A DNA stretch of 61,869 nucleotides, the filler included. It is 10 parts of 10 records of this genome, joined end to end, with 100 filler letters (N's around TTAATTAATTAA, not from the genome) between each part and the next. Parts side by side here need not be neighbours in the genome. Positions count along the whole stretch, not along the records: positions 48,321 to 52,152 come from SRR7504441_9380; 9 more parts are not named here. One strand, written 5' to 3'. A model generated the notes under the pieces. That model was not told the origin of the DNA and made no database searches. It saw only the letters and a list, made by a program, of their open reading frames with translations. The position numbers and the translations under genes were made by a program. This document shows positions 6,800 to 61,549 of this stretch, piece by piece (positions within the stretch are counted from its first letter, which is position 1; every line of letters starts with the position of its first letter).

Positions 6800-6899
6800 N
6801 NNNNNNNNNNNNNNNNNNNNNNNNNNNNNNNNNNNNNNNNNNNTTAATTAATTAANNNNNNNNNNNNNNNNNNNNNNNNNNNNNNNNNNNNNNNNNNNN
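6800..6899. other. Artificial contig-joining spacer
   Basis: 44 N + TTAATTAATTAA (stop codons in all six frames) + 44 N. Confidence 0.99.
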
Positions 6900-19090: not shown

Positions 19091-19190
19091 NNNNNNNNNN
19101 NNNNNNNNNNNNNNNNNNNNNNNNNNNNNNNNNNTTAATTAATTAANNNNNNNNNNNNNNNNNNNNNNNNNNNNNNNNNNNNNNNNNNNN
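19091..19190. other. Artificial contig-joining spacer
   Basis: 44 N + TTAATTAATTAA + 44 N. Confidence 0.99.
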
Positions 19191-23954: not shown

Positions 23955-24054
23955 NNNNNNNNNNNNNNNNNNNNNNNNNNNNNNNNNNNNNNNNNNNNTT
24001 AATTAATTAANNNNNNNNNNNNNNNNNNNNNNNNNNNNNNNNNNNNNNNNNNNN
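23955..24054. other. Artificial contig-joining spacer
   Basis: 44 N + TTAATTAATTAA + 44 N. Confidence 0.99.
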
Positions 24055-28122: not shown

Positions 28123-28222
28123 NNNNNNNNNNNNNNNNNNNNNNNNNNNNNNNNNNNNNNNNNNNNTTAATTAATTAANNNNNNNNNNNNNNNNNNNNNN
28201 NNNNNNNNNNNNNNNNNNNNNN
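28123..28222. other. Artificial contig-joining spacer
   Basis: 44 N + TTAATTAATTAA + 44 N. Confidence 0.99.
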
Positions 28223-32002: not shown

Positions 32003-32102
32003 NNNNNNNNNNNNNNNNNNNNNNNNNNNNNNNNNNNNNNNNNNNNTTAATTAATTAANNNNNNNNNNNNNNNNNNNNNNNNNNNNNNNNNNNNNNNNNN
32101 NN
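32003..32102. other. Artificial contig-joining spacer
   Basis: 44 N + TTAATTAATTAA + 44 N. Confidence 0.99.
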
Positions 32103-35871: not shown

Positions 35872-35971
35872 NNNNNNNNNNNNNNNNNNNNNNNNNNNNN
35901 NNNNNNNNNNNNNNNTTAATTAATTAANNNNNNNNNNNNNNNNNNNNNNNNNNNNNNNNNNNNNNNNNNNN
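35872..35971. other. Artificial contig-joining spacer
   Basis: 44 N + TTAATTAATTAA + 44 N. Confidence 0.99.
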
Positions 35972-38900
35972 CACGGCTGTCTTCCAGCGCCTTGGCTTTG
36001 AGCTCTGCTGTTTGCACCATCTTTTGATGACTCTTTTGCATTCTTTGTTCTTGGGCTTTTGCTTTCTCGAAGTCTGCTGCAGTCTTCTGCAACTGTTGTT
36101 CCGCCAAGCGTTGCTCTCGCTTCTTTGCTGTCCGCTGATTCCGCGCATTCAAATCTTCAAGTCTGGCTTGTGCCTCTGCCTTGTGAATCTTGGAAACCTC
36201 CCTATCAGAAACCTCTTTTTGAGCACGTGCATCAGCCAAGTACTTTTCAGCAGTTTGCCTTTTGGCAGAAGCCTTCAGACCTTTCTCATCAGCAGCAGCC
36301 TCTTGCACTGCAGCCTGAGATGGCGCCTTTTGGGTTCTCTGAGCCTTTAGTTTTGCTGTCTTAGCATCTGCCTTGGTTAGTTCGACTTGCTGTGCAGCAG
36401 CCTGCTTCAGTTGAGCAGATTCTTTTACTTTCTTTTCATTGTCGTCGATCTTCACGTTTAAGTCAACAAGTTTTGACTTGGCAGCCTTCAACCCTCGCTC
36501 AGCAGTGGAGGCTCCTTTGCGCGCTGCTATGACATTTGCGCGGCCTTTTATAGACGCTTTGTGTGCTAGCTCGCTGTTCACTTGAGCTTTGCTCATTTTC
36601 TCTGTACACGCATTTTGTCAAGCATTTGCTATAGAAACAGGGCAAAAGATCATGCTAAACACACCGTTCAAGCTATTGTTCAATTTTTCAGCCTGTCTTG
36701 ACGCAAGCTCGGACTTCGTCTGTCGTTCTTTCATGATAGTCTCTTGTTCCTGTGCACTCTCTTGCTCAGTCCTAGCATTGGACAGGTCTTGTGAAACTGA
36801 GTCTCTTGTCTTTTCCCCCTTCACCAATTTCTCTGATGCACTCTTGCAGCTGATACTTTCTGCATCACTCTGGTCTGCGTTGCAACTCTTTTCCTTTTGT
36901 AGCTGCAGCGTCTTCAGCATCAGTTGTGCAGATTTCATGAGTTGGGCTGCTTTTGAGAGTTTCTCAGATGCTTGGGCTTGGTCTGCTGCCGCTTGCTCAG
37001 TTTTTTGTTTTGCACGAGACGCATTCAGTTCTTCTTTTTTAAGCTTGTATTTCAATGATTCCTGCCAACAGGTAAGTATTTAACAGTGCAACTTCATGCG
37101 GCACAGACAGCTACAAGGCTTTCAGTCAGGTCGGTAATGTTATCATAGACGGTACCTGTTGATCACGGGTCTGACGAACTTCTGCTTTAGCAGACACCTC
37201 CTTTTCGGCGCCTTTCTGGTCTGTCTCTCTAGCTAGCTTCAAAGATGCAGCAAGTTCTCTGGTTTTCAGCTGTGCTTGGTTCTCCATATCTCTGCTCTGC
37301 TGTATCTCTTTGGCTAGCTTTGCGCCTTCAGCATTGCCAGCTTGCATTGCCCGAGTAGCACCCTCCTGTTTTTCTTTTGCATGTCTAAGAAGGATGGCAT
37401 ATTCGTTTTCCTTGGTCTTTGATTCATGCCTCAGTTTTCGAACAGCAACTTTGTCCTGGAGGCGCTTCAATGTCTGCTGCGACTTCAGGCTGAGCTTGAC
37501 TTTCTCCAAATTGTCTTTTTCACTCTTGCTTGCCTGAGACAGACGCTTATCTGATTCTGCCAAAGAAGCAAGCTTGTTTTCAGCCTTTTGCTCCCGTCCA
37601 GTTTCAGCTCGAAGCTGTTGTTCAGCTGCAGCGAGCTCTGCAGTTTTCTCTTGGACTGCAGTTGCAGTCAAAACTTGGTCCTGAGCGGCCTTCTCCGCAA
37701 GTCTTGTTGCGTTTTGTTCATTGAGAAGTGCTTGATCTACCTCGTCAGTTGCACTCTCTTGGAGTTTCTGCTCCTCATTTTCCATGGTGTGCATGTGTCT
37801 GAGACTACTCTTGAAGAGGGTTTGTTCCCGCTGCAAACAAGTAAATTAGGTATCAATTAGGCAACACTTACGCATCATTTAGGGAAGCACTTACCACAAA
37901 TCTTTTTATCTGCTGTTCTTGGTGTTTCTTCCTCATCCTGCTTTTGTTGCCCTTTTCTCTTGCATCATGAGCTCTTTGCAAGGCATGGGCCTTCTGTTGC
38001 ACAAGGCTTGCTCGTTTTCCTGCAGCTTCAGCTGTGGTGACCTTTCCAAGGATTTGGAGCTTATTAGTATAACCTTGAATGCTTGCTTCTTGCTGCCTTG
38101 CTGCCTTGAAACTTGCCTGAGCTGAGTGCATTCTTGCAGATTTCATCTCCATTGAGCACACTGTCAACTGCTGGTGAACGACTTCAGCTGTTGCAGATGT
38201 AGAAGCTGACTTCACAGCCTCAAGCACAGTAGGAATGATCTTTCGTTTCACATCGGCAAGGTCAAGTTGTTCTCCTGGCTGCACGTCTCGTGCTGACGTG
38301 TTTCCAGACAGCTGCAATCGAAGTGAGCGAACAGTAGTTTTCACAGTACTGAGTCTAATAGCAGCAACTGCCACTGGAACACCTTTGGCTGCACACGATG
38401 TTTCAGCACTTTTGTGTGCAGCGGCAGCAGCAACGCTGACCACAAGAGGCATGAGTTGCTGGCGAAGATAAACCACGCTTGCGGTACGTGCAGCTGCTCG
38501 AGATGCCTGCGTGGCAGCACTGACTGCTGCTTTATGGAAATCAGCATACGTCTTAGGACACCATGTTTTTGTCTGTTCAACCTTCAACAGTGAGTCTCGC
38601 ATTGCACTCAGCATCACGCGTTCAAGTTCAAGACTGTCGACCACCTCAATTGCTAAGTTGTTCACAGATGCATCAAGATCCCTCAAGGCCAAATGAGCAG
38701 CTCTTGTGGCCACTTTCTCAGCAATCTGACACATCGATGCAGTGAATGCTGCCTGGACAATCAGCGCGTCTTTTATTGCCCTATTGGTGAAGTTCTGGAA
38801 ATCTTTTGCAACCAAAGGCTGATTTGCAGAAATTGCCTTTGCGCGGAAGGCATTCCCATGCAGAGAAGCAGTTGCAGCCCACTTTGCCACCTTATCGACT

Positions 38901-40922: not shown

Positions 40923-41022
40923 NNNNNNNNNNNNNNNNNNNNNNNNNNNNNNNNNNNNNNNNNNNNTTAATTAATTAANNNNNNNNNNNNNNNNNNNNNN
41001 NNNNNNNNNNNNNNNNNNNNNN
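40923..41022. other. Artificial contig-joining spacer
   Basis: 44 N + TTAATTAATTAA + 44 N. Confidence 0.99.
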
Positions 41023-48220: not shown

Positions 48221-48320
48221 NNNNNNNNNNNNNNNNNNNNNNNNNNNNNNNNNNNNNNNNNNNNTTAATTAATTAANNNNNNNNNNNNNNNNNNNNNNNN
48301 NNNNNNNNNNNNNNNNNNNN
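48221..48320. other. Artificial contig-joining spacer
   Basis: 44 N + TTAATTAATTAA + 44 N. Confidence 0.99.
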
Positions 48321-51300
48321 CTCATCAAGGCGCTGAGTCAATGTCGCATCTCCAAACACTAGAGCGCCAAACCCTCCGAGATCTTCCTCCGGATCCCAGA
48401 AGTAAAGCCGTTTGTGCGATTCGCATTCGAAAAGAAACACAACATTGCCAGCTTCAATCAGAGCCTCCACAGTTTGCTGAGCGATCGATTTAGTATCCAT
48501 ATCCTTGGGGCAGGAGCACTGCGCTGTAAGTAGACTCTGATTGCAGCAATCCCATTTAGACACACTCTCTTTGGCGTGGATCTGAATGGCATAGTGCCCC
48601 GGATGGCTTCGTATGGCGGAAGCGCCCGATCTGTTGCACTTGCCTGCGTACTCTAAACATCCACAGCAGCTCCAGGAGACACTCGAAGTGCATCTCCTGA
48701 GATTCTTCATCGCACCAAACTCCGGTTCCCACTCCGACCAGCTCGCGGACTGCCAGCCACACCACTCACCCGAGTGCTCGGCGACGTTCTGGCGGCCAAC
48801 AGAACTACACTGATCAGCGTACGCTTTTGCGCCACAGCATGACCAGCCCACCTGACCATGCACGTGCGCTCCCCACAGGCCACCATTCCGTACATGGGCC
48901 TCTACGTTCAGCCGATTCTGTCGACCGCACGCGCTACCAAAGTGTTCATCGCCACAGCAGCTCCACATGAGACGAGCACTGTGCTCGTCGTACTTTATTA
49001 GAGTCCAGGTGCCGCCTTGATGCGTCCTGACTAGGTTACTCTCATCGCGCTGCATTTGCCTCCGGTGAGCTGCTAGCACCGCGGCTAGCTTGGCTCTAGC
49101 TTCGTCCATCCGCTGGCTCGCTTCTAAGCTCCAGCCTTTCCAAGAGGCTACACACGTTTCATATCGGAAGGCATTCAACCCGTTCAGCCGCTGCTGGAGG
49201 TGTGGCTGGCTTGCAAGCTCCTGGTCACTCTCTGCTAGCACCATGTCACAGACTCGCCCGTATTCGGCTGATGCGACGAGAAGCCCGTGGAAATATGTAT
49301 TGTGACGCTCAAGCCGTAGCCTTCGCAGTCTCTGCAGCGCGTCGGCGTCAACATGGCCTTCATGCTCTAGACTAGATGGTGCACTGTCACGGTCGTCAAA
49401 ACACTCAAGACGGGCCTTCTTACAAGCTAGCTGGTACCAGTATACCGCCCTCCTGCTGAAGCCAAGCCCGGTGACTGCTGCAAAATTGTGGCTCAGATTG
49501 GGCCAAACTGCCCCTGACAGCCCGTTGGCATCGCACCACTTTACTACTGTCACAGCCACCGCCGAGTCAGGATCCAACTGCGGCGCGAATGACCACTTGC
49601 TGCCATCGAAACAGGCCCATTCCAGATCTGACGGCGCAGCAAGCCCGAGTCGGAGCATCAGCCCAGCCTGCAGCGTGACCAGCTGCTCTTGGCACACCTC
49701 AAAAACGCAAGCCGTACGCTGTGCTGTGTGCTTGCAGTCCGAAACCACTAGGCTGAGCATCCCACTCGGCGCCACTCTTGCCCACTCCGTCGGTAGCACA
49801 GGCCCGCCCTCCCGAAGCCGGTGACCCATAAGCCGGTGCTGCGAGGCCTGTACGCCATAAAGCACGAGTGCAATCGCTGGCGCTGGCGAGAACCATCGTT
49901 GTGGCTCTGGGAAGTCTGCGTAGTTGCACAGTAACCGCTGGTCGAACCATCCTTTTAGCTCGTCGTCGCCTGCCCCCAAAGCTCAGCCCAGTCACACCAG
50001 GCCTCCTCACGCAGCAGACTGAAAAAGTGGCTCAGCATAGTCTGCGGTCGGCACCTCAAGGACTTGACCCAGAGACTCGTCCAAAGGTCACAATCCAGCG
50101 CCAACTCGCAGGCACGCTGCACCACAAGCAGCAGCAGCTTGGTCCACATGACCACCTTTGTGGCCTCCCAGGAGCTGGCGTGGCTGCGGAACTCGACGGT
50201 TGGCTTGCCTTGCGCGAGCAGATTCTGGAGGTTGAGTTTGTAATACCTCGGTGCGCTGTCCGCTAACTCGACGGCCTTCAACAGTGGGTTGGCTGGGGTA
50301 GCGGGATTTAGCCATTCGCACAACTGTTGCATTGTCGAACAGCTGTCCACCTTGTCAAGTGCATGTTTGTCTGTACCTAGTAAACTCCTATTGGACATGG
50401 CAAACATATTATAGTCGGCCCGTCGGCTTGGCGGCTGAATCAAGTCAATGACCTTCTCAAAAGTGACCCAGAGCTTGCACAGCGCCTTGAGTTGTGGCGA
50501 AGGACAGTCCGCAGAGCCCCACACCCAGCTGCACTGACCAAACCCAACGTGGACGTGCAAACCAGTTGAGGTGTTGGCCCTGCTGTCGAGAGTGCAGGCT
50601 GCACTGACCGCCGAGCGCAGCTGCGCAAGCCCTGCGCTCCCATGCAACACCGGCGAGCTCAGCTCGAAGCACAGCACCGGTCCTCTGACCCCAGCCGGGG
50701 GTTTAATGCTCGAATCCGGCTCGAAATTCCATGTATCGAAGCTGTCCACTCTCTTGGTCTCCGACTGGGTGGCGCTGATGCCTGTCTGCTGCTGCCAGAG
50801 GGCCTTGAGCCGCTCCAGGCTCATCTCGGCCAGCACGAAACCCTCGAGCTCGACCCCAAAGCTAAGTGGAACCATCAGTCGATCTTCCCCAATCGGCAGG
50901 CTCTCGGGCACCTCCGAAGAGCGGAGCGGAGTGCTCGAGAGCCGGCGCAGAGGCCCTGGACCCAGGTCCTGCTGGAGCTGGCGCGAGACAAACTGGCGGA
51001 CGAGCTGAAGATACCCAGTCAGATGCTCGCGCCGCCAGCTCTCCAAATCCCAGCCGTCCTCTTGAGACGGCAGATTGGTGAAAGCGCCCGCTATCACCAC
51101 GCCATCCGGCTCAAAGGGCGCTACGTACGAGACCAGCTGCTCGCCGGTCACTGGGTCGGCGTATGGAGCGGTCCAGCCGCGGCCGGCCCGCCCGTGCTCG
51201 AACCACGGCCGGCCGGTCAATTCATACTCGCCAGACCACTCATATACGGGCTGGAGCTGACCACCCTCTTGGACCGCCGAAGGCTCGTACGCCGCATAAC

Positions 51301-52051
51301 GGCCAGCAGCCACCTCCGGCCAGCCAAGCAGCAAGTCGGCGCCGTATCGGTACTGGCCATCGGCTAAGGCAGAGCGATCCATCGCGTAGACACAATAGTA
51401 CTCACCGGGCAGCGCCAACCCTAGGCACTTTGAGTGGATCCGACTGAGACGACACGGGCACTGCTGCCAGGCCCGCCAGGCCGCAGCCAGCCCCGCGCGC
51501 CGCCGCTCGGCACTCGAGCCGTGCCCCGCTGAGGCCCACGCCTCGGCCGCTGCCGCCATGGTTGCGGCCGCCCCCGGAGCCCACTCCCGGGGCTCCAGAT
51601 CGCCCACCCAGGCGTACATGATGGCCACCAGATCGCCGTCGGCAGTGGCAGCCCGGACCGGCCGCTTGGCGTAATCGCACCCACTGCACTCGAACATTTC
51701 AATCATCCGAGCCTCGGCCGCCGATAGGTCTGGCATCGTCACCCCGGCCAGCACATCCGACTGGTCTCCGGGCACGGCCCCGGGCACGGTCAGCCCTGGC
51801 AGCTGGACCAGCCGCCAGCCGCGCACCGAGGCCGGGACGGTGGCCACCCGCCGGCTGAGCAGCCCGACCCGGACCTGCTGGTCGAGCAGGCTGCCGTAGG
51901 CGAATACAGGAGGACTGGTGGGATCTTCCGGCTCCGGGGGCAGTGGAGTCCGCGCAGGCGGCGGCTTGCCCGCGCGGGAGGACCGCTCCCGGGAGAGCGT
52001 CCTGCGCAGCTGGCTCAGCTCCGCCGCCGCCTCCCCGATTGAGCCCTCCAT
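48321..52051 (-). CDS. Multidomain protein: AIG2/GGCT (with Cache-like insertion) + Amidoligase_2-type ligase + second GGCT-like domain + coiled coil + 4 BTK-like Zn motifs; 3'-truncated
   Basis: VFAYGSLL...FE...YAKRPV...MYAW; RPWF...WTAPYADPVTGEQLVSYVAP; SFGVELE...EPDSSI...FELSSPVL...STGLHVHVG...RYYKLNL...TVEFR. A 41-nt GT-AG intron at 49970-50010 joins the 704-aa and 568-aa ORFs in frame. Then GPVLPTEWAR...GMLSLV...W....GLSGAVW and four H..G.W/Y...W(S/D)CC...C repeats. Confidence 0.75.
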
Positions 52052-52152
52052 TCGCCGGAGATAGGTCACGACCTCACTGGGCGCGCCAACCGAACGGCCG
52101 CGGCGATCTCCAACCGCAAAATTCAGAGTGATTTTAATCTATTTTTGTCTAG

Positions 52153-52252
52153 NNNNNNNNNNNNNNNNNNNNNNNNNNNNNNNNNNNNNNNNNNNNTTAA
52201 TTAATTAANNNNNNNNNNNNNNNNNNNNNNNNNNNNNNNNNNNNNNNNNNNN
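52153..52252. other. Artificial contig-joining spacer
   Basis: 44 N + TTAATTAATTAA + 44 N. Confidence 0.99.
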
Positions 52253-55200
52253 GAGCGGCGGAGGGCCAAGCAAGCAGCTGCCGAGGATCGCCGTGATAGG
52301 ATTATGAATGAATTAGATTCAGCGTCAACGAGTGGAGAACGAGAGATGCTACGGAAGCAGCTGGCTTTGTGGCAAGGTGAATACAATCTTGCAGCTGGGA
52401 AGGCTCAGAAGAGCGAGACACTGCAAGGGGTAGATGCCGACCGCTATAGTAAGGCAGTTGCAACCAAGGATGAAAGCCAGACAGATGTGGATACTACGGA
52501 GCGCAAGATCGAGCTGGCGCGAGGTGAAGTGGAAGCACGCCTTGAAGATGTCGAATCGACAACATCAGAGCGCAACAAGGCAAAAGATGACAGACGGGAA
52601 GCGCGACAAAAAGCAGCCGCAGCAGATGCAAAGGCCAAAGAGCTAGAGGAGAATATTGTCCTGGTCGAGCATTTAGTATACAGAAAAGCTCGGAATCGCA
52701 AGCGAGCTTCTGAAAAATCTGCAAAGGCGACTGAACGGAAGCAGCGTCACTTACTCAGCACAGTTCTTGCAAAGGAGGTAGCCAAGACAAAGGCTGCTGT
52801 TCGTAAAGCTTTGAGGGCCAAGATGATTGCCGAGGCAGCCCTTCTCGATGAAGAAGAAGAGCGGAAAATAGCAGAGGAACAGGCTAACAGCCAAAAGCAG
52901 AAGGCGAAGCAAGAGCAGGACAAGCTGAAGGAGAGCGAGCTCAAACTGCACGAGGAGCAGAATGCCGAATCTCTAGCAGTAGGCTCTGAAAACGTCGCAA
53001 AGGCTCAAATGGAAGTGATGTACCGTGCTATGTCTGAGGCAGAACAGGGTATCACAGCAGATGGAATGCCAACCCCCGCTCAGTCGGAAACCGCATTCAA
53101 AGATGCACAGGAGAAGCTCAAAGCTCGACAAGCCGCAAAGGACGAGGCTACTGAAATTGCAGAAACACAATCAAGACTTGTTTCCATGGAAGAGAAGGAG
53201 GCAGCAACAGCCAATGAGGCTGCATCGGTTGCAAAGCAAGAGGCAGAAATCACAAAGGCGCGGGAGGAGGCAACCAAACAGCGGCTGAACGAAACTAATG
53301 CTGAAGCTAAAAACCTCGACAAACAAGAGCACATGCAAATGTCACGAGATAGCAAGATCGAAAAGGAAGATGCTACCAAGGCCAGTGCTAGTCGGGTCCA
53401 GATTCTGATGGAAATGATGGTGGCTGAGGCTCGAGCTGGCACTGAGATAGAGCAACTCCATGTGACGTCGCAGCAGCTACAGGAAGAACTTGAAGCTGCT
53501 CAGGAAGAGGAAGCTGCAGCCAGCAAGAAGGAAACCGCTGCGCAGAATGCAGCTGAAGCAGCAAAGACTGAGGTGGCACAGGCCACCCAGACAGCAGCAT
53601 TAGCAGGAAGTGATCTGAAGGCAGCGATTGGAAATGGTGCATCAGACGCTGATATTGCAGACATGCAGGTGCGCATAAATGAAGCTGAAAAGGCTATGGA
53701 ACTTAAACAACAAGTTAGCAATGACGCAGTGCACTCTAGTGAGCAAGCCAAAGGTGACGCTGACAACGCTAGAGGCAAGGTGCAAGCTATTGCCAAGCAG
53801 AAATTGCACATGGAGGAGACAATTGAATCTAAGAGCAAAGCAATGTTGGAAATACAGGAGAAAATTGTCCAAACGAAGAGTGCTCTTAAAGCTGAAGAGG
53901 ACGCTACAATGGGAGGTGCGGTACATGCGAACAACATGCTGCTGGATGCTGAGGACCATGAAGAGCTCTCTCGGCAAGAGAAAATGGCCGCAAAATATAG
54001 GCTGAATATGCTGGAATCGGTCAAAGAGTCGATTGCGCAAGGGCATTCAGATGCTCGTATGCAGGCAGAGGCTATTCATAAGCAGCAGCAGGACGAGGCC
54101 ACATTGAAGAGTGCTGAACAGCAGAACCATAAGGCCATGTTAGCAGTGAACCACGCCACGACGGTTCTTAAGGAGGCCATGATCGCTGAAAAACACGCCA
54201 CAAAAGAGGCAGACACAAGAATGTCCGAGAGCAAGCAGCTGAAACAAACTGCTCGAGAACTCATGACAAGCGCAAACGATGCAGTATTGCTTCACGCCAA
54301 AAACGCGTCCATTAAGCATACAGCGCAGCAGAAGGCGGCCCAGTTTGCTTGGAACCTGGCGCAGAAGGTGGCAGTTGCTCATGCCTTCGCGCGTGCTGCA
54401 GATCAAGCACTTGGGGAAGATGCAAACGAGCTTGCATTCGCAAATGAGTTCGTGCTTGGTGGATGGAAGTATAATGATGGTGAAACAAAGGCCAAAACGC
54501 AGGCTGATGGGCAATATGACATGATTGCAGCCAATCAGGCCGCCTCTCAGGCAGAAGAAGCAAAGCTTGCAGCAGACGCAAAAAGCTCTGCGGCAGAAGG
54601 AAACGAGAATGAGAGGCAGAAACAGCTTTCACGGTTTGTACACATGTCAACAGTTTTGTCCCAGGCTGCTTCAAGGGCTGCTGCACAGAAATTAGCAGCC
54701 GATAAGGCAGTGGCGGCACGCCAAGAAGACTTGAAAGAAGTTTCTCTTCGAACCAAGGCGCTCAAGGAGCTACAAGCGCAGGCGGCCGATCTGAAATCGC
54801 AGCGCTTGATGAAGCTTGAGATGCTTCAAGTCGGCTTTGAGCAGGCAAACGCCACTGCGGCGGTGAGCATCAAAGCAATGGATGCAGATGCGCGCAAGAA
54901 TCGGAAAGACCTCTCAAACAATCTCAAATGGGCCAAGGAGGAGACTCCTTCTACTGAAGAAGCTGAACTCATCACAGTCGCAATCGATGAATTGAGGACA
55001 ATGGATGCGGCAGAGAGGGCCAAATTCGAGGCTTGGCGCAACGCAACAGCCACACGTTCTCTGCTGGCTGCTTTGTCCGAGGCAAAGGAGAGCTTTGAAG
55101 CCCAGGCAAGCAAGCTTGCTCAGCGCTCGCGAGAGCTGACTGAAGAAATTGATCGGAAGAAGAGCATTGTTGAAACAGCAGTCGCAACTCAAAGGACTGA

Positions 55201-58200
55201 ACAGCAACGTCTGGATGATTTGAATGCTCAGCAAGCCACCAAGGCCGAACTTCAGGAGGACGAAGCAATGATCGGCAAGCTGGCTAAGAACGAGAAGTCC
55301 GTAGAGGAGAACACTAGAAATACCGCGCAGGATCTTGTGGATGCAGCGAAAAATAGGATTGCTTCAATCATAAAGATTGCAGCGCAAGCAAAGAAAGACG
55401 AGGCCATGGCGTCGCGCGCATTTGTGGGTTCTAAGCACATCGCCAAGACGATCAATGAAACACTCCTTGAGCAGCAGGCAAGACTAAAGAATCTAGTCGA
55501 AGAACATACTATCATGAAGGAACGTGCTCAAAACGCAACAAAGCTTTGGCAGGACTTTGTAGGGTTTTCATGGCCGCCGGCTAGCACGCTCACTTCGCAA
55601 GACTGGCTGCAACACGCTCCAACCCTGGATGGCATGATGAAAGCAAACACCCAGCTGAAGGTATTGGACGTGGCTGCTCGCCCCTGGCCCAGTCTGGAGG
55701 ACTTGGAGAAAAAGGCAAAAGCCTGGCAGGAAGCAGTGCTTACTTTCGATCTTCCAAGGGCAGTAGCATTGGCCAAATCCCACGTGGAAGCGACTGCCTC
55801 CACACAATTTGCTCAATTAACTGCTCACACCGCTGAGATGCTACTGCAGAGGGCCAATCAAAGGGAAGAAGGGACGAACCTGCGCACGATGGCTGGCAAA
55901 GATTTGGTAAAAGGATTCAAGGTGCACGCAGCCGAAGCGCACGCTGAGAGCGAAAATGCAGAGATGGAAGCTTCGAGTAAAAAGATGATGTGGAACCAGA
56001 TTAAAAACAGCAGTTTCGCTGCCGAGGGCCCGATTGAGCTCGATAAGTTCAACACGGCTTTCACTAAAGCCCAGCGGACAGTCCACAGGAGCCAAGACCT
56101 TCGGGAAGGTGCCCCTGAACAGCTTGAGGCGATGAAAAAATCAGTATTCCGGTTCCATGCTGATTGTGTGGCTTGGAGAGCACGAGCCATCAAACTTGCT
56201 ACAAGTGCAGCAGAGGAGGGCGCTGATTTGAAAGCCCACGAATGGTCAGTGAGGCATATGAAGCAGCAGATCGTCCAAGATAGGCAGGCTTCCAAGATAG
56301 CAGAGATGGAGTATAGCATGCGAGATGAAAAATATCGTATTGCGAAACTGAGGCTGAACCAAACAAAAGGCTTGCTTGAGGATGCAAAGGCCGGCAAGAT
56401 CGCCGAGGAGAGTGAGCTTGCCAAGATCAAGCAGGAACAAGAAGCAGACGCGAGGAGGCTTGCCAGCCTGACTCGATTGGATGCGAAGGAGGCACCACTG
56501 TCTAAGGAGAGCATCGAAGCAGTGCTTGCTAACGCCACAGCTACAGAGGTGGCAGCAAAGCTCGCTCTCGATAGTGTTGAAGTAGAGCAAAGGCGGGTGC
56601 AACTCGAAAAAAATCAGTATGCAATGGCAGCCACAGGCCTCGAACCAGAGATCGCATCGGCAAAGAAGGAATTACTGGCATTGGAGCAGACTGAAAGAGA
56701 GAAAGAGGCTGTTGTGACCGACTATGGAATACGAAATGCTAAGTACATCAGTCTTGCTACGAAGGCTGTTGCGAAGGATGTTGCTGGCGAGGACAACGAA
56801 ATTGCACTGGATGCAGCCAATCAGACAGAGAATACCCTCAAATCCGCCGCAATGATCATGCAGGGTCATAAGGTTCCTGCAGCGGAGCAAAAGGCAAAGG
56901 ACGACGTACTTCAGGTCATGAAGGCCAAAGCTCAATTGAAACTCGCTGAGTTGAAAGAAAAGCGACAAGGAGCTGTTAAAGCTAAATTCGATTCTGAGAT
57001 CGTCTTGATGCACAGGTCATCATCAAAGGCACGTAATGCTATCCTAAGTGCTCAGGCAAATGCTACCAAGGCCGCCACAAAGGCAGAGGAGGCGCAGAGC
57101 GCTGCAGGGCGAGCTAGACAGAAGGTTTCCCAGGCTGTGGATGCAGCTGGAGTGTCTATGCAAGAACTTGAGGCAATTCGTATAAAGATAGTCAAGAGCG
57201 TCGCTGACATCAGTCAGGCCAAGCTCTCACTGCATCAAAGCGCTGCACAGGAGGAACTGGCCAAGATTGAGGCAGAGGATGAAGAAAAGCTGAAAAGTCA
57301 GGGAGAGGATCTTAAAGAGGCAACAGAGGAAAAGCAGGAAGACGATGAGCGCATGCAGGAGCAAGCTGCTACAATGCCAGTTCCTCCCAACCAAGAGGTC
57401 GAGGACGCCATCGAAGCAAGGGAAAAAGCGGCGTTGGCTGGGGCTGAGGCTAAAGAGTTGCTTCAGCAGGCACAACTGCGAGCTGAAAAGGCCAGCCTAA
57501 ACAGCAATCGCTTAAACGGAGAAGCCAAAGTGCTCGTCAAAGAGGCAGAGGCACTGCGATCAGAAAGCTCCAAATATCATAAGGCTAAGTCAGTTGAGCT
57601 CCATGAAGCCAGGCATGAGGCACGGAATGACCAGGCTACACTTTACAGTGCGGCCCAAGCAGCTCAAGTCCTGGCCAAATGCCGTGTGAATTTCATTGGA
57701 TACTCAAGTGAGCAAATCCCTGCTCCCGTTCAAGCTCAGTTGCGAAAGGCTCTGGCTCAAAGTCACAAGAACTTGACCTCGACAACCGTAGACATAGTCG
57801 AGATCGCAAGGTGTGATCCTCACACACTCGCAACAAAAGACACCAAGTGTACCACAATCGGCTTCAAGTCTCAGCTTGCTTACCATTCACTTGCAGAAGC
57901 AGTCGCAGATGCCGTGAAAAGCTCGGTGTTGACTGGCAAAATGAAAGAGAGGGTCATAGATGCTGATGTGCTGGATGGCGAACCAGTATTCGATTCAACT
58001 AAACTAGACTTGCAGATGCCTTTCAGGTGCTCAATCGATCAAGCGGTTGACAAGAAAGCGCCAGTGACCTGCTCTGGACTCCCTGGACGGCATGGTTGCT
58101 TCAATCGGGGTCAGTGTACTGCGAAGGATACCTGCATGTGCGATGATGGCTATACTGGTGATGATTGCGAAGACCCTATCTGCTTTGAAAAGAGTGGAGA

Positions 58201-61200
58201 CATTGCATGTAGTCACCATGGAAGATGTTCTGCACCGAATGAGTGCAAATGCACCATGCGCTGGGCTGGCACTCAATGCGAAATTCCCAAATGCTATTCT
58301 ACCCTTGCTAGTGATAGCAAGGTGTGCTCAGGTCATGGGACATGTGAGGCTCCTGATACTTGCCTCTGTGCGGATGGCTGGGCTGGCGACGACTGCGAGC
58401 TCCCAGTGTGTTCAGGCGTCAATAGCACTGATGTAAATGTTTGTATGGGACATGGAATATGCCATGCGCCAGATCAGTGTGACTGTCAGCATGGGTTCAC
58501 AGGTTCGCAATGTCAGCACGAGAGCTGTGAACGGTGCAACCACAATGGTCGTTGTATTGGAAGGCATGAATGCGAGTGTCACGGCCAGGGCAAAGGTTAC
58601 GGATTCACCGGCTATGACTGCTCGGCTCCAGTGTGTGGACATTTGTCGGGTCCTGAGGCCTGCTCGGGCCATGGGGACTGCCACCGTGGATCATGTAAAT
58701 GCGGTTATGGCTGGGGTGGCACCGACTGCGAGCTGAAGTTGTGCAATGGCGTGGCACAGAAGGATGGTGCCTGCTCCAACCATGGCCTCTGTACAGGAAT
58801 AGACAAATGCGAATGCGAGGTTGGATGGACAGGCGATTGGTGCTCACATCGGCTATGTGACGGCAAGGGTATCCAGCAAGGTGGATGCTCTGGTCATGGG
58901 CTGTGCAATGCGCAGGGCAAATGCACTTGCATCAAGGGATGGACAGGTGAGAGCTGCGACGAGCCCGTCTGCGAACCATCTTGCATGCATGGTGGTAAGT
59001 GCTCTGCTCCAAATACTTGCGACTGTCCAGAAGAGTGGGGTGGCGCGCAGTGCGGCATGGCTGTCTGCAATGGTAAGACTATCAGCGATGGTGCATGCTC
59101 TGGTCATGGGAAGTGCAGTCCCTTGTCAGATATAGCAACAGCAAGTGAGGCAGCTCCACAGTGTATGTGCGAATTCGGCTGGGCAAAGGAAACCTGCAAT
59201 GAGCCTTCGTGTGGTGGCCTCTCAGGCTGCTCAGGACATGGCACTTGCTTGGGTTATGAGCTCTGCACATGCAATCCGGGATGGTCGGGAAAAGCTTGCG
59301 ATATACCAGCGTGCAGTGGTAGCCCCACATTAGAGGGTGGCTGTTCTGGACACGGCACTTGCACTGCTCCTGAGGTCTGTTCGTGTGATCCTGGATGGTC
59401 TGGTAGTAGCTGTAAGATCACAACGTGCGAGCCCAAGTGTCAAAATGGGGGCGAATGCATTGGCCCAAATAAATGCGAATGCCCAGAAGGATGGACGGGA
59501 GATGACTGCAGCCGGGCTTTATGTGATGGCAAAATCACCGCAGAAGGTGCTTGCTCTCGGAATGGAAGATGCGACAGTCCAGATGAGTGTCGTTGTACCA
59601 GTCTGTGGGCTGGGAAACAGTGTGAAATACCGAAGTGTTTTGGGCTGAAGGGCGAGTTTGAGTGCAGTGGTCACGGTAAGTGTGGATCACCTGACGCGTG
59701 CCAATGTAACGATGGATGGATAGGGCAACAGTGTGAACATGCTATTTGTGACAAGAAGCACTCGGTAGAAGCTTGTTCAAGTCACGGAAGATGCGAGAAT
59801 CCAGACAAGTGTACTTGTGAGGAGGGCTGGACCGGTGAAATCTGCTCCTTGTCTCAATGCTTTGGTGTCGATGCCGACGACGACACAGTTTGTTCAGGTC
59901 ATGGCACTTGCTTTGGGCCCGGCAAATGTCAATGTTTTGACGGGTTTTATGGAAGTGACTGCGCTGGAAAGTCCTGTAGCGAAGATGCCGCAACCGGCCT
60001 CACATGCAGCGGCCATGGTTTATGCAACATTGAAAGCACGTGCGAATGCGATCGAGGCTATTTTGGGTCGAACTGTGACCAAGCAATATGCAAATTTGAC
60101 TGCCAGCATGGTGCACCATGCTTCGCTCCAGACAAATGCCAGTGCCCGAAGGGCTGGTCAGGCTCCCTGTGCGAGACCCCAGTGTGCTCAGTGTCATGTG
60201 CCAATGGTGGCAAGTGTGTAGCGCCAGACGTCTGCGAATGCCCATCTAAGGAGTGGCAAGGCCCCTTCTGTGAGGAGCCCGTTTGTGGAGGACTCACTTC
60301 GGCCCAAGGCGCATGTTCGCAGAACGGGCGCTGCAGTGAACCAGACACATGCGCCTGTGACATAGGCTGGAGTGGTGACGACTGCAGTCAGCCCGTTTGC
60401 GCAGAGACAGCAGATATGGAGGTCTGCAATGGGCGAGGCCAATGTGTTGGACCGGGCAAGTGCAAGTGCGAGCTTGGCTTTGCAGGAATGGACTGTGAGT
60501 GGCCCACTTGCTCGAAGCTCACCTCTGTTGATGGTGGCTGTGGCTTACATGGGGAGTGTGTGGCTCCAGATCAGTGCAAGTGCGCAGAGGGTTGGGGTGG
60601 ACCCGATTGTAATACACCTACCTGTTCTGAGGAGTGCCGCAACGGCGGTGCATGTGTTGCTCCCGATACATGCTCGTGTGCTGCGCAGTGGACAGGGCGC
60701 TGGTGCACCCAGCCACTGTGTGGCGGCAGCACCACTGGTCAAGGCGCCTGCAGCAACAACGGGCGCTGCTCCTCGCCAGATAAATGTACCTGTCATGAGG
60801 GCTGGAGTGGCCCACACTGTAGCATTCCCACCTGCCAAGGAAAGGCTGGCGTTGAAGCATGCAGTGGACACGGAGTCTGTGGTAAACCTCACACCTGCTC
60901 ATGCATGGACGGCTGGAAAGGGGAAGACTGCAACCAAGTTGTATGCGGCGGCGAATGCTCTGCCCATGGCGCGTGCAATCTGCCAGGGCAGTGTGAGTGC
61001 AGCCCTGGATACTCGGGGGTCGCCTGTTCCAACCCAATTTGTCCCTGCGACAACGGCGGAACCTGCGTTTCGCCACACAAATGCGACTGTACACCAGAGT
61101 GGACTGGTGACACTTGTACTCTGGCCAAGTGCGATGGGCTCACTACAGCCGATGGTGCATGCTCAGGGCATGGGCATTGCAGCACCCCAGGGGAGTGTGC

Positions 61201-61549
61201 TTGTAATGAAGGCTGGGCTGGATCAAAGTGCGAGATGCCAATCTGCAATGGTGCCACCGGGCAGAAGGCCTGCAACGGGAAGGGAGAGTGCATTTCCCAT
61301 CAGGTCTGTCGCTGCAAATATGGCTGGGGTGGTTTCTGGTGCGAGGCGGCAACATGCAATGGTCAGTTGAACCAAGAGGGTGCTTGCAGTGGGCATGGCA
61401 CATGCACGGAAATTGACAAATGCGAATGTGACAACGGCTGGACTGGCCAAGAATGTGGCGAGCAGCAAGGCCAAAGCACCGAGGGCCTAGCCGTGGGCTG
61501 GGACCTAGTGCGTAGTGGGCGGCGGTTGCTCAGTGCGTGGTATGGGTGA
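52253..61549 (+). CDS. Giant coiled-coil + SEA-like + EGF-repeat protein (5'-partial, >3,090 aa)
   Basis: One frame open from the contig start to TGA at 61549. About 1,780 aa of Ala/Glu/Lys heptads with several N-x-S/T sites, a short globular linker, then 31 six-Cys EGF units. Confidence 0.9.
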   Translation, partial: ERRRAKQAAAEDRRDRIMNELDSASTSGEREMLRKQLALWQGEYNLAAGKAQKSETLQGVDADRYSKAVATKDESQTDVDTTERKIELARGEVEARLEDVESTTSERNKAKDDRREARQKAAAADAKAKELEENIVLVEHLVYRKARNRKRASEKSAKATERKQRHLLSTVLAKEVAKTKAAVRKALRAKMIAEAALLDEEEERKIAEEQANSQKQKAKQEQDKLKESELKLHEEQNAESLAVGSENVAKAQMEVMYRAMSEAEQGITADGMPTPAQSETAFKDAQEKLKARQAAKDEATEIAETQSRLVSMEEKEAATANEAASVAKQEAEITKAREEATKQRLNETNAEAKNLDKQEHMQMSRDSKIEKEDATKASASRVQILMEMMVAEARAGTEIEQLHVTSQQLQEELEAAQEEEAAASKKETAAQNAAEAAKTEVAQATQTAALAGSDLKAAIGNGASDADIADMQVRINEAEKAMELKQQVSNDAVHSSEQAKGDADNARGKVQAIAKQKLHMEETIESKSKAMLEIQEKIVQTKSALKAEEDATMGGAVHANNMLLDAEDHEELSRQEKMAAKYRLNMLESVKESIAQGHSDARMQAEAIHKQQQDEATLKSAEQQNHKAMLAVNHATTVLKEAMIAEKHATKEADTRMSESKQLKQTARELMTSANDAVLLHAKNASIKHTAQQKAAQFAWNLAQKVAVAHAFARAADQALGEDANELAFANEFVLGGWKYNDGETKAKTQADGQYDMIAANQAASQAEEAKLAADAKSSAAEGNENERQKQLSRFVHMSTVLSQAASRAAAQKLAADKAVAARQEDLKEVSLRTKALKELQAQAADLKSQRLMKLEMLQVGFEQANATAAVSIKAMDADARKNRKDLSNNLKWAKEETPSTEEAELITVAIDELRTMDAAERAKFEAWRNATATRSLLAALSEAKESFEAQASKLAQRSRELTEEIDRKKSIVETAVATQRTEQQRLDDLNAQQATKAELQEDEAMIGKLAKNEKSVEENTRNTAQDLVDAAKNRIASIIKIAAQAKKDEAMASRAFVGSKHIAKTINETLLEQQARLKNLVEEHTIMKERAQNATKLWQDFVGFSWPPASTLTSQDWLQHAPTLDGMMKANTQLKVLDVAARPWPSLEDLEKKAKAWQEAVLTFDLPRAVALAKSHVEATASTQFAQLTAHTAEMLLQRANQREEGTNLRTMAGKDLVKGFKVHAAEAHAESENAEMEASSKKMMWNQIKNSSFAAEGPIELDKFNTAFTKAQRTVHRSQDLREGAPEQLEAMKKSVFRFHADCVAWRARAIKLATSAAEEGADLKAHEWSVRHMKQQIVQDRQASKIAEMEYSMRDEKYRIAKLRLNQTKGLLEDAKAGKIAEESELAKIKQEQEADARRLASLTRLDAKEAPLSKESIEAVLANATATEVAAKLALDSVEVEQRRVQLEKNQYAMAATGLEPEIASAKKELLALEQTEREKEAVVTDYGIRNAKYISLATKAVAKDVAGEDNEIALDAANQTENTLKSAAMIMQGHKVPAAEQKAKDDVLQVMKAKAQLKLAELKEKRQGAVKAKFDSEIVLMHRSSSKARNAILSAQANATKAATKAEEAQSAAGRARQKVSQAVDAAGVSMQELEAIRIKIVKSVADISQAKLSLHQSAAQEELAKIEAEDEEKLKSQGEDLKEATEEKQEDDERMQEQAATMPVPPNQEVEDAIEAREKAALAGAEAKELLQQAQLRAEKASLNSNRLNGEAKVLVKEAEALRSESSKYHKAKSVELHEARHEARNDQATLYSAAQAAQVLAKCRVNFIGYSSEQIPAPVQAQLRKALAQSHKNLTSTTVDIVEIARCDPHTLATKDTKCTTIGFKSQLAYHSLAEAVADAVKSSVLTGKMKERVIDADVLDGEPVFDSTKLDLQMPFRCSIDQAVDKKAPVTCSGLPGRHGCFNRGQCTAKDTCMCDDGYTGDDCEDPICFEKSGDIACSHHGRCSAPNECKCTMRWAGTQCEIPKCYSTLASDSKVCSGHGTCEAPDTCLCADGWAGDDCELPVCSGVNSTDVNVCMGHGICHAPDQCDCQHGFTGSQCQHESCERCNHNGRCIGRHECECHGQGKGYGFTGYDCSAPVCGHLSGPEACSGHGDCHRGSCKCGYGWGGTDCELKLCNGVAQKDGACSNHGLCTGIDKCECEVGWTGDWCSHRLCDGKGIQQGGCSGHGLCNAQGKCTCIKGWTGESCDEPVCEPSCMHGGKCSAPNTCDCPEEWGGAQCGMAVCNGKTISDGACSGHGKCSPLSDIATASEAAPQCMCEFGWAKETCNEPSCGGLSGCSGHGTCLGYELCTCNPGWSGKACDIPACSGSPTLEGGCSGHGTCTAPEVCSCDPGWSGSSCKITTCEPKCQNGGECIGPNKCECPEGWTGDDCSRALCDGKITAEGACSRNGRCDSPDECRCTSLWAGKQCEIPKCFGLKGEFECSGHGKCGSPDACQCNDGWIGQQCEHAICDKKHSVEACSSHGRCENPDKCTCEEGWTGEICSLSQCFGVDADDDTVCSGHGTCFGPGKCQCFDGFYGSDCAGKSCSEDAATGLTCSGHGLCNIESTCECDRGYFGSNCDQAICKFDCQHGAPCFAPDKCQCPKGWSGSLCETPVCSVSCANGGKCVAPDVCECPSKEWQGPFCEEPVCGGLTSAQGACSQNGRCSEPDTCACDIGWSGDDCSQPVCAETADMEVCNGRGQCVGPGKCKCELGFAGMDCEWPTCSKLTSVDGGCGLHGECVAPDQCKCAEGWGGPDCNTPTCSEECRNGGACVAPDTCSCAAQWTGRWCTQPLCGGSTTGQGACSNNGRCSSPDKCTCHEGWSGPHCSIPTCQGKAGVEACSGHGVCGKPHTCSCMDGWKGEDCNQVVCGGECSAHGACNLPGQCECSPGYSGVACSNPICPCDNGGTCVSPHKCDCTPEWTGDTCTLAKCDGLTTADGACSGHGHCSTPGECACNEGWAGSKCEMPICNGATGQKACNGKGECISHQVCRCKYGWGGFWCEAATCNGQLNQEGACSGHGTCTEIDKCECDNGWTGQECGEQQGQSTEGLAVGWDLVRSGRRLLSAWYG
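58070..61456 (+). repeat. Array of 31 tandem EGF-like (tenascin/EGF_2-type) repeats
   Basis: Manual count of C...CsghG.C..p..C.C..Gw.G..C units. Confidence 0.9.

Follow-up and report, generated by a model that had tools for sequence, protein, structure and literature searches.

A predicted protist gene joining AIG2/GGACT, Cache-like and Amidoligase_2 domains to a conserved zinc-knuckle-like tail

Has a microbial eukaryote placed an Amidoligase_2-type ligase and an AIG2/GGACT-type cyclotransferase in one polypeptide and, if so, what might such a protein do? The window we analyzed (a stretch of 61,869 nucleotides, filler included) consists of about 10 separate contigs chained by N44-TTAATTAATTAA-N44 spacers, and the gene that raises this question lies on the minus strand of a single contig at 48321-52152 (3832 bp). 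We consider the odds somewhat better than even that a marine microbial eukaryote carries it as a single nuclear-type gene, with two exons and a 41-nt intron, for a soluble protein whose length is 1230 residues or more and whose mechanism we infer from its ligase, GGACT, Cache-like and tail parts. The predicted chain is shown to carry, in this order, an AIG2/GGACT domain, a Cache-like domain, an Amidoligase_2 domain and a conserved C-terminal module with four Cys3-His repeats. This supports the first-pass annotation of the locus, which had placed such parts in one eukaryotic gene; the Amidoligase_2 domain is intact, the tail is Cys/His-rich and the genome is eukaryote-like. The protein is predicted to be soluble, as it has no hydrophobic N-terminus and its best 19-residue Kyte-Doolittle window scores 1.41.

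Exon 1 (50011-52051, minus strand) runs without interruption from the ATG at 52051 to the splice donor and encodes residues 1-680 and the first base of codon 681; this ATG is the first one because an in-frame stop lies upstream at 52139-52141. The predicted GT-AG intron (49970-50010, minus strand; 41 nt, phase 1) starts with GTGAGG and ends with GGGCAG. Exon 2 (48321-49969, minus strand) encodes the C-terminal module, of approximately 549 residues, in a frame that runs off the contig end, and its alignment ends within 1-2 residues of the C-termini of two homologues, P0006 and P0007. Removal of the intron yields a frame of 1230 codons without a stop, which is a lower bound because the frame is open at the contig end. 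If the intron is retained, ORF1 (ATG 52051 to 49958) ends at a stop codon at 49955-49957 (minus strand) and gives a product of 698 aa.

Are the two ORFs parts of one gene, as had been claimed from the letters of the DNA? The two homologues are informative here. P0006 is a hypothetical protein (GAB5353063.1, 879 aa) of the chlorarachniophyte Amorphochlora amoebiformis and P0007 is a cluster of six members (881 aa); in each, Amidoligase_2 is followed by the same tail of approximately 500 residues with four H...WxCC...C repeats. The window protein is 30-32% identical to them over approximately 795 aligned residues, collinear across the splice site: the ligase part of ORF1 aligns to P0007 residues 46-374 and P0006 residues 36-366, ORF2 is collinear with P0007 residues 366-860 (BLASTP 3e-25 and 1e-21) and with P0006, and the spliced junction aligns without a gap against both. 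Also, among 279 stop-free GT/GC..AG candidates the 41-nt splice scored highest (80; the runner-up reached 71). Of 10 sequencing runs that share words with the sequence (only 5-11% of those sampled), none is listed as RNA; four were compared, all as contigs, and none of their contigs spans 49970-50010 or was reported with a joint there, a result that is silent on splicing. Homology thus supports the predicted intron and the fusion it creates, and the ligase and tail half is shown, at the level of predicted proteins, to exist as one chain in other protists. That the locus instead makes two products, a 698-aa GGACT-Cache-ligase protein with ORF2 as a gene of its own, an alternative isoform or a degraded relic, we regard as improbable. 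The splice does rest on homology, the stop at 49955-49957 is in frame when the 41 nt stay in, and intron retention could yield the short isoform; however, no Met precedes residue 52 in ORF2, whereas its conservation with P0006 and P0007 begins at residue 6, these homologues hold both halves in one chain, and simple frameshift models scored 45 against 80 for the splice.

Taking the single-chain reading forward, the best characterized of its parts is the Amidoligase_2 domain (residues 396-641; 50129-50866, minus strand), which belongs to a family of glutamine-synthetase-fold carboxylate-amine ligases. It matches Pfam PF12224 at E 8.8e-22 (78.6 bits versus a cut-off of 22) over profile positions 3-242 of 245, and phrog_2443 at E 1.3e-10. 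The motifs that had been described as intact are all present, FGVELE at 398-403, FELSSP (the ELxSP motif) at 462-467, GLHVHVG at 497-503 and TVEFR at 618-622. The family residue is kept in 33 of the 39 columns with at least 80% conservation, and three of the six misses are an alignment artefact caused by misalignment of the N-terminal motif, which is present at 398-403. We assume that the individual conserved residues have putative catalytic and metal/ATP-binding roles. In an AlphaFold model (pLDDT ~90 over residues 396-690) the domain has a glutamine-synthetase-like fold: 19 chains matched at a Z of 8 or more (8.1-13.5) and all were glutamine synthetase (GS), glutamate-cysteine ligase (GCL), YbdK, PafA, Dop or lengsin. 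The top match had a Z of 13.5 (rmsd 3.6 A, 227 residues aligned), and gamma-glutamylmethylamide synthetase, Dop and PafA scored 11.8, 10.8 and 10.5, respectively; a Foldseek search with the same model found YbdK at E 4.1e-4. In the literature surveyed we found no biochemical data for any Amidoligase_2 member.

The GGACT/AIG2-like domain (residues 49-150; 51602-51907, minus strand), originally recognized by its VFAYGSLL motif (residues 49-56), is likewise borne out, as it matches Pfam PF06094 at E 1.2e-9 (39.2 bits versus a cut-off of 22.8; profile positions 1-104 of 120). Its best matches of solved structure are plant AIG2-like proteins, PDB 2jqv (AIG2 protein-like; E 4.9e-10) and 2g0q (E 1.6e-3), with which it has in common an [FV]-Y-G-S motif and an aligned Glu, both kept in the HMMER alignment to 2jqv. 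We take this Glu to be the catalytic base. The plant proteins stand alone at approximately 170 residues, whereas here GGACT is part of a large chain, and to our knowledge the substrates of the plant proteins are themselves not settled. In the AlphaFold model residues 44-153 have pLDDT below 50, since no relatives of the GGACT part are in the underlying alignment, so that the fold and active site of this domain are predicted from sequence.

Between the two enzymes lies the Cache-like (PDC-type) domain (approximately residues 155-330; 51062-51589, minus strand), which represents a conserved family: 12 of the best 150 library matches cover this part only, with up to 58% identity. A profile built from an alignment of 13 relatives (A4) matched 10 PDB sequences at E of 0.0022 or less, all of them dCache sensor domains, over only approximately 45-65 core residues, the best being 7k5n (8.7e-6), 6iop (4.9e-5) and PctA (7e-4). 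The first-pass annotation had called the domain sensor-like, and this stands for the family profile; in Pfam, however, the window's own sequence scored 16.7 bits against MCP-like_PDC_1 (PF22673), under the curated cut-off of 27. Its relatives also fell below the cut-offs, with 20-23 bits for MCP-like_PDC_1 in six of seven and 19.7-23.6 bits for dCache_1 (PF02743; cut-off 45) in two of seven.

What might such a domain bind? In the numbering of the first A4 row, Y129-x4-R134-x-W136 and Y150, the latter in a downstream PY, are invariant in all 13 A4 sequences. The AA_motif of dCache_1AA domains, as given in excerpts of PMC8915833, comprises a carboxyl-binding YxxxxRxW followed by a Y and a D on the amino side; the invariant A4 residues appear to correspond to its YxxxxRxW and third Tyr. 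The same excerpts report that D173 of PctA is essential for amino-acid binding. The A4 consensus Asp, which pairs with an Asp of 7k5n in the HMMER alignment, we take as the probable equivalent of PctA D173 by its position in the motif, not by alignment to PctA, and the window has no Asp at that A4 position. The Y-x4-R-P-W and PY-x-DP core aligns to the ligand-binding module of dCache_1 domains that bind amino acids (PctA, Mlp24/37 and Tlp3, and animal alpha2delta and CACHD1). Unlike those sensors, the domain in the window comprises just one module, of approximately 175 residues, within a protein without a signal peptide or membrane segment, and it has no counterpart of the amino-group-binding Asp. 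Cache domains usually have an extracytoplasmic placement beside a membrane segment, and no hydrophobic segment was found in the window protein.

The C-terminal module contains four His...W-x-C-C...C repeats (48504-49031, minus strand), putative C3H zinc knuckles that are conserved in the homologues; across the window, P0006 and P0007, all 12 repeats keep the W/C/C/C pattern and flanking His. The claim of zinc-binding motifs stands in the form of these putative knuckles, and its link to BTK does not: ORF2 matched no Pfam family at E of 10 or less, BTK (PF00779) included, and the resemblance of the repeats to a Btk-type zinc finger presumably amounts to the order His, Cys-Cys, Cys. A profile of the repeats (A5) had no match in the PDB. 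The second, degenerate GGCT-like domain that had been proposed within ORF2 was not recovered, by that Pfam search, by an hhalign comparison of the ORF2 family with the GGACT domain at the N-terminus (probability 0.1%) or by an A1 profile search of the PDB, which gave no match. The AlphaFold model of ORF2 from four sequences was unusable (mean pLDDT 35), and on the coiled coil that had also been proposed it offered nothing beyond helices predicted at low confidence.

Where did this combination of domains come from? P0006 and P0007 begin approximately 45-67 residues ahead of the ligase and have neither GGACT nor a Cache-like domain (upstream exons of P0007 were possibly missed), so the ligase does not need those parts. 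Among the matches listed, the amidoligases most similar to the ligase come from other protists. GGACT was absent from all 77 of the longer library matches (those of at least 330 aa among the best 150) and from all 75 of these that bear the ligase, while YEATS occurred in 14 and La in one of the 77. Eukaryotic amidoligases with reader domains (YEATS and others) likewise have Amidoligase_2 in multidomain, eukaryote-type proteins, although their partner domains differ from those of the window. In the library and viral relatives scanned, the full four-part architecture was not found elsewhere; the combination of parts is new and the individual parts are already known. To call the system undescribed was nevertheless too strong, as a proposal quoted in excerpts of PMC2938197 already casts eukaryotic COOH-NH2 ligases as "chromatin protein amino acid ligases." Several other searches returned nothing of use: NCBIfam gave no match, the ESM Atlas gave no usable match for ORF1 or ORF2, and word-based homologue searches (ORF1 at near lengths; alignment A1 at longer and near lengths) found none, which is a failure of the method since relatives exist.

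The contig of 3.8 kb carries only this gene, with no amidotransferase or other partner gene, and a common organism with the window's other contigs is therefore an assumption. A chimeric join was rejected, as GC declines gradually from 0.75 to 0.50 along the gene without a step. Could the DNA be viral or virus-derived, from a giant virus or an endogenous viral element binned with a eukaryote? We judge this very improbable. It would fit with the lack of any other gene on the contig and with the existence of amidoligase and GGACT neighbours in large viral records: in two of three such records the two are separate genes on the same strand, 188 nt and approximately 2.1 kb apart. However, none of the 34 viral amidoligase ORFs scanned (from 33 of 80 loci, their ORFs being 326 aa or longer, and the matched segment only of locus L034) contained GGACT, searches turned up no viral relative of this GGACT domain, and a viral GGACT query returned only itself. 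Furthermore, one of the ligase's closest relatives is encoded on an Amorphochlora contig of 2.6 Mb, the GC content of 61% is within the 48-65% of the window's other contigs, and the predicted intron is of spliceosomal type and resembles short GT-AG candidates that join long ORFs on two of those contigs (45 nt at 17692-17736; 64 nt at 37831-37894).

If the gene is eukaryotic, how does it relate to the systems of bacteria and phages in which the same enzymes are found? Phage and prophage gene sets with both Amidoligase_2 and AIG2/GGCT genes appear in excerpts of PMC3890496, PMC11318856 and PMC10580990. The cassettes of Pseudomonas phage UFV-P2 (ORF23/25/28/29) and C. clostridioforme prophages contain the same two enzyme families, functionally linked by genome context, as separate genes with the ligase followed by GGCT and with amidotransferase and ATP-grasp partners. 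The window, in contrast, has one chain in which GGACT comes first, a Cache-like domain is inserted and a zinc-knuckle tail is added, and 13 cultured-phage records carry stand-alone amidoligases only 24-28% identical to its ligase. By analogy, the gene may work like a phage cassette but it is no instance of one. The operon precedent that had been invoked therefore holds for phage and prophage gene sets (PMC3890496 and PMC11318856, in excerpt) and as separate neighbours in the two large viral records, a pairing that favours a functional link between the two enzymes. Of the further idea that a eukaryote compressed a bacterial pair into one protein, the presence of both enzymes in one chain stands, but descent from an operon is less well supported: among solved structures GGACT is closest to those of plant AIG2-like proteins (2jqv) and the ligase to protist amidoligases, so the fusion may have been assembled within eukaryotes.

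A major question arising from this architecture is what chemistry the protein would perform. Predictions that amidoligase and GGCT gene sets make or strip off amide-linked tags reportedly go back to 2009, and in the literature surveyed no substrate of any such set has been identified. By analogy with its fold relatives glutamine synthetase, glutamate-cysteine ligase, gamma-glutamylmethylamide synthetase and PafA, the ligase would draw on ATP for activating a carboxylate, most likely glutamate's gamma-carboxyl, which would then be joined to an amine. The GGACT domain would undo or process the product, with the gamma-glutamyl group cyclised to 5-oxoproline and the amine freed. The Cache-like domain, having kept the carboxylate-binding half of the amino-acid motif, would probably bind an amino acid or related acid and either gate the enzyme or present substrate, and the zinc-knuckle module could select the target, a protein or another macromolecule. 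Such writer and eraser chemistry is plausible from the domains present. A single chain whose ligase and cyclotransferase worked on one and the same bond would, however, cycle futilely if the two were neither regulated nor directed at different intermediates.

Is the product then a small molecule? A fused enzyme could make or edit one, the ligase putting a gamma-glutamyl or other acyl group on a small amine and the cyclotransferase removing it later, and we hold this to be a real, if minority, possibility. BtrJ and BtrG in butirosin synthesis, and the gamma-glutamyl polyamine or methylamide pathways, are precedents for such protecting-group or salvage chemistry. The fold relatives GS, glutamate-cysteine ligase, YbdK, gamma-glutamylmethylamide synthetase and 1-naphthylamine GS point in the same direction, as do the carboxylate-binding motif of the Cache-like domain, which suggests a small ligand, and the biosynthesis-like clusters around phage amidoligases described in excerpts of PMC8989533. 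On the other hand, a conserved 550-residue tail with four zinc-knuckle-like repeats bears more resemblance to a macromolecule-binding module, the YEATS and La domains fused to ligase relatives are readers of proteins or RNA, and the protein-acting PafA and Dop are fold matches also. The bolder proposal, a cytosolic ligand-gated enzyme in which the Cache-like domain would sense an amino or related acid and switch between gamma-glutamylation of a target chosen by the tail and its removal as 5-oxoproline, we consider unlikely. If true, it would be a reversible, metabolite-controlled tagging of proteins or other macromolecules of a kind not described in eukaryotes.

The gene has two extra handles that make it a convenient entry point, a domain that probably binds a ligand and a tail that probably binds a target; knowing the Cache-like ligand and the tail's partner could lead straight to the chemistry. 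The Cache-like domain and the zinc-knuckle tail each define a conserved family, and the gene is a further example of an intracellular Cache-type domain that is joined to enzymes instead of a receptor. The Cache-like family might already be contained in Dataset S3 of PMC8915833, a list of protist dCache proteins. A metagenome scan with the Cache-like profile found four loci; in one of these (L002) the domain is a stand-alone open frame of 276 aa, and in another (L001) the frame is open at the 5′ end and stops after the domain. Lastly, one relative, P0008, appears by eye to have hydrophobic N-terminal segments.

The gene lies on the minus strand and fills an entire contig (48321-52152, 3832 bp), which makes its genomic neighbours uninformative. 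ORF1, its first reading frame, starts at the earliest ATG (52051), is 698 aa long and ends in a stop at 49955-49957; the second frame, ORF2, has 554 codons without a stop between 49982 and the contig end at 48321. The first-pass annotation had fused the two through a 41-nt intron (50010..49970) that begins GTGAGG and finishes GGGCAG, and homology strongly backs this predicted intron. Excising the 41 nt leaves 1230 codons without a stop, and at the spliced junction a stretch ending SHFFSLL runs directly into DDELKGWF, gap-free against both P0006 and P0007, two relatives that carry a ligase plus a tail. When 279 stop-free GT/GC..AG combinations near the site were scored against these two proteins, the 41-nt intron came top with 80 and the runner-up reached 71, whereas simple frameshift models of the junction scored 45. 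The alignment stops no more than 1-2 residues from the C-termini of P0006 and P0007 and, therefore, little of the protein is missing. Contigs from two public sequencing runs (X1 and X2) match from 48321 and extend 38-42 letters past the contig end, and thus the missing C-terminal codons are present in public data. GC declines steadily along the gene (48321-52051): the first 100 codons stand at 0.75 (GC3 0.87), the last at 0.50 (GC3 0.56).

Both relatives were found in a full HMMER search of 1.84 billion representative proteins, of which 1693 matched at E <= 1e-3. P0006 (879 aa, E 1e-35) and P0007 (881 aa, E 3.4e-33) each have an N-terminal Amidoligase_2 domain and a long tail collinear with ORF2 (BLASTP of ORF2 gave 3e-25 and 1e-21 against P0007 and 5e-14 against the repeats of P0006). 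P0006 is annotated as a hypothetical protein on a 2.6-Mb contig of the chlorarachniophyte Amorphochlora amoebiformis. A half-architecture of ligase plus zinc-knuckle tail is common to our protein and other protist proteins. No Pfam family was matched by ORF2, and its AlphaFold model was unusable (pLDDT 35). It does hold four His...W-x-C-C-(G)...C repeats, conserved in 12 of 12 copies in our protein, P0006 and P0007, a pattern that suggests four Cys3-His zinc sites. The order of their His and Cys residues resembles the Btk motif, a likeness that found no backing from Pfam or from a repeat-profile search of PDB. A second GGCT-like domain, also proposed for ORF2, was not recovered by Pfam, by hhalign with the N-terminal GGACT domain or by a profile search of PDB.

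The two enzymatic domains of ORF1 were both borne out. Amidoligase_2 spans residues 396-641, numbered from the ATG (Pfam E 8.8e-22, above the curated cut-off), and every motif quoted by the first-pass annotation for either domain is present. The family residue is kept in 33 of 39 columns of at least 80% conservation among aligned matches, and three of the six missed columns are a MAFFT artefact in which the N-terminal FGxExE of the homologues was set against the Cache-like region; the protein's own FGVELE lies at residues 398-403. The AlphaFold model has a mean pLDDT of 65 overall and ~90 over residues 396-690. In an exhaustive structural comparison of this predicted fold, all 19 chains with Z >= 8 were GS-like carboxylate-amine ligases, the best being GS (Z 13.5, rmsd 3.6 A over 227 residues), and the others including YbdK-type enzymes, glutamate-cysteine ligases, gamma-glutamylmethylamide synthetase and the Pup enzymes PafA and Dop. 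Foldseek agreed (YbdK, E 4.1e-4). The AIG2/GGCT domain was recovered as GGACT at residues 49-150 (Pfam E 1.2e-9, above the curated cut-off). It resembles Arabidopsis AIG2-like structures (2jqv, E 4.9e-10; 2g0q, E 1.6e-3), with which its YGS motif and a downstream Glu align; pLDDT is below 50 here, and the assignment comes from sequence.

Between these domains lies a Cache-like region. Twelve of the best 150 of the 1693 matches cover only residues ~152-325, at up to 58% identity, and are short proteins or fusions with other N-termini; the domain also stands alone in other organisms, as in metagenome locus L002, where it makes up an open frame of 276 aa that has a stop of its own. The Cache-like domain defines a conserved, unnamed family, whose members are P0001-P0005, P0008-P0010, P0012, P0013, P0016, P0135, and metagenome loci L001 (1-582) and L002 (3257-4087). 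In P0008 the segments preceding the domain look hydrophobic by eye, and in P0003 it follows a 290-residue N-terminal region of no known identity. A 13-member alignment has an invariant core of Y-x-W-x-G-x-Y, R-P-W and T-x-x-Y-x-D-P, and its profile matched 10 PDB sequences at E <= 0.0022 (best 8.7e-6), all of them ligand-binding dCache domains, from chemoreceptors and from a diguanylate cyclase. The earlier description of a sensor-like domain thus holds at the level of the family profile, although our protein and the relatives scanned score under the curated cut-offs of the Pfam Cache models. In PMC8915833, the amino-acid motif of dCache_1 comprises a carboxyl-binding part, a third Tyr and an essential Asp. 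The first two correspond to the invariant Y-x4-R-x-W and the next Tyr. A profile-consensus Asp falls opposite an Asp of 7k5n, which we take to be the place of the essential Asp, but our protein itself lacks Asp there. We found no membrane segment and no signal-like N-terminus in the protein, and therefore the Cache-like domain would be intracellular.

Is the architecture new? The full GGACT-Cache-ligase-tail chain occurred in none of the 77 longer library matches (of the best 150 of 1693) and none of the 34 viral ORFs scanned, both limited samples, and the ligase-tail half already exists in other protists. To call the proposed tagging system undescribed would overstate the case, because protein modification by eukaryotic COOH-NH2 ligases has already been put forward in print (PMC2938197). 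The 77 ligase relatives also include fusions to YEATS (14), prokaryotic YEATS (11), SelR (2), class-I glutamine amidotransferase (2) and La (one, P0024).

What might such a chain do? If it behaves like its fold relatives, the ligase would activate a carboxylate with ATP and then join it to an amine. GGACT-type enzymes cleave gamma-glutamyl-amine bonds by cyclisation to 5-oxoproline. Because of this fold analogy and this chemistry, the most economical reading is that the ligase would make a gamma-glutamyl amide that GGACT would then remove or process. The Cache-like domain would be a putative binder of an acid ligand, and the tail may choose the target, protein or small molecule. The two enzyme families are linked through genome context: phage and prophage tables in PMC3890496 and PMC11318856 place Amidoligase_2 and AIG2/GGCT genes within the same modules, and two of three large viral records searched hold amidoligase and GGACT as stand-alone genes on one strand, the GGACT gene coming second, 188 nt and ~2.1 kb away (viral loci L086, 1363-3022, minus strand, and L085/L076).

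The window (61,869 bases) does not represent a continuous piece of chromosome and comprises ten separate contigs of 3.8-12 kb (GC 48-65%), joined by N44-TTAATTAATTAA-N44 spacers at 6800-6899, 19091-19190, 23955-24054, 28123-28222, 32003-32102, 35872-35971, 40923-41022, 48221-48320 and 52153-52252, so adjacency between contigs is without meaning. Other contigs carry eukaryote-type genes, for an AAA protein with an RZ-type zinc finger, a PWWP protein and an amine oxidase. Within 10550-19090 (minus strand), a candidate 45-nt GT-AG intron (17692-17736, GTGAGA...TGGCAG) holds the in-frame stop between two ORFs of 459 aa and 2386 aa; the longer one has AAA domains and the RZ-type zinc finger, and the gene is therefore RNF213-like. 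A candidate 64-nt GT-AG intron (37831-37894, minus strand, GTAAGT...TTGCAG) links 1017-aa and 239-aa ORFs, neither matching a Pfam family. Short canonical candidates on three contigs (41, 45 and 64 nt) fit an intron-poor genome with short introns. A single plus-strand open frame of ~3100 codons (52253-61549) runs into its contig start; its long N-terminal half is charged and helix-like, and after it come dozens of EGF-like repeats rich in cysteine.
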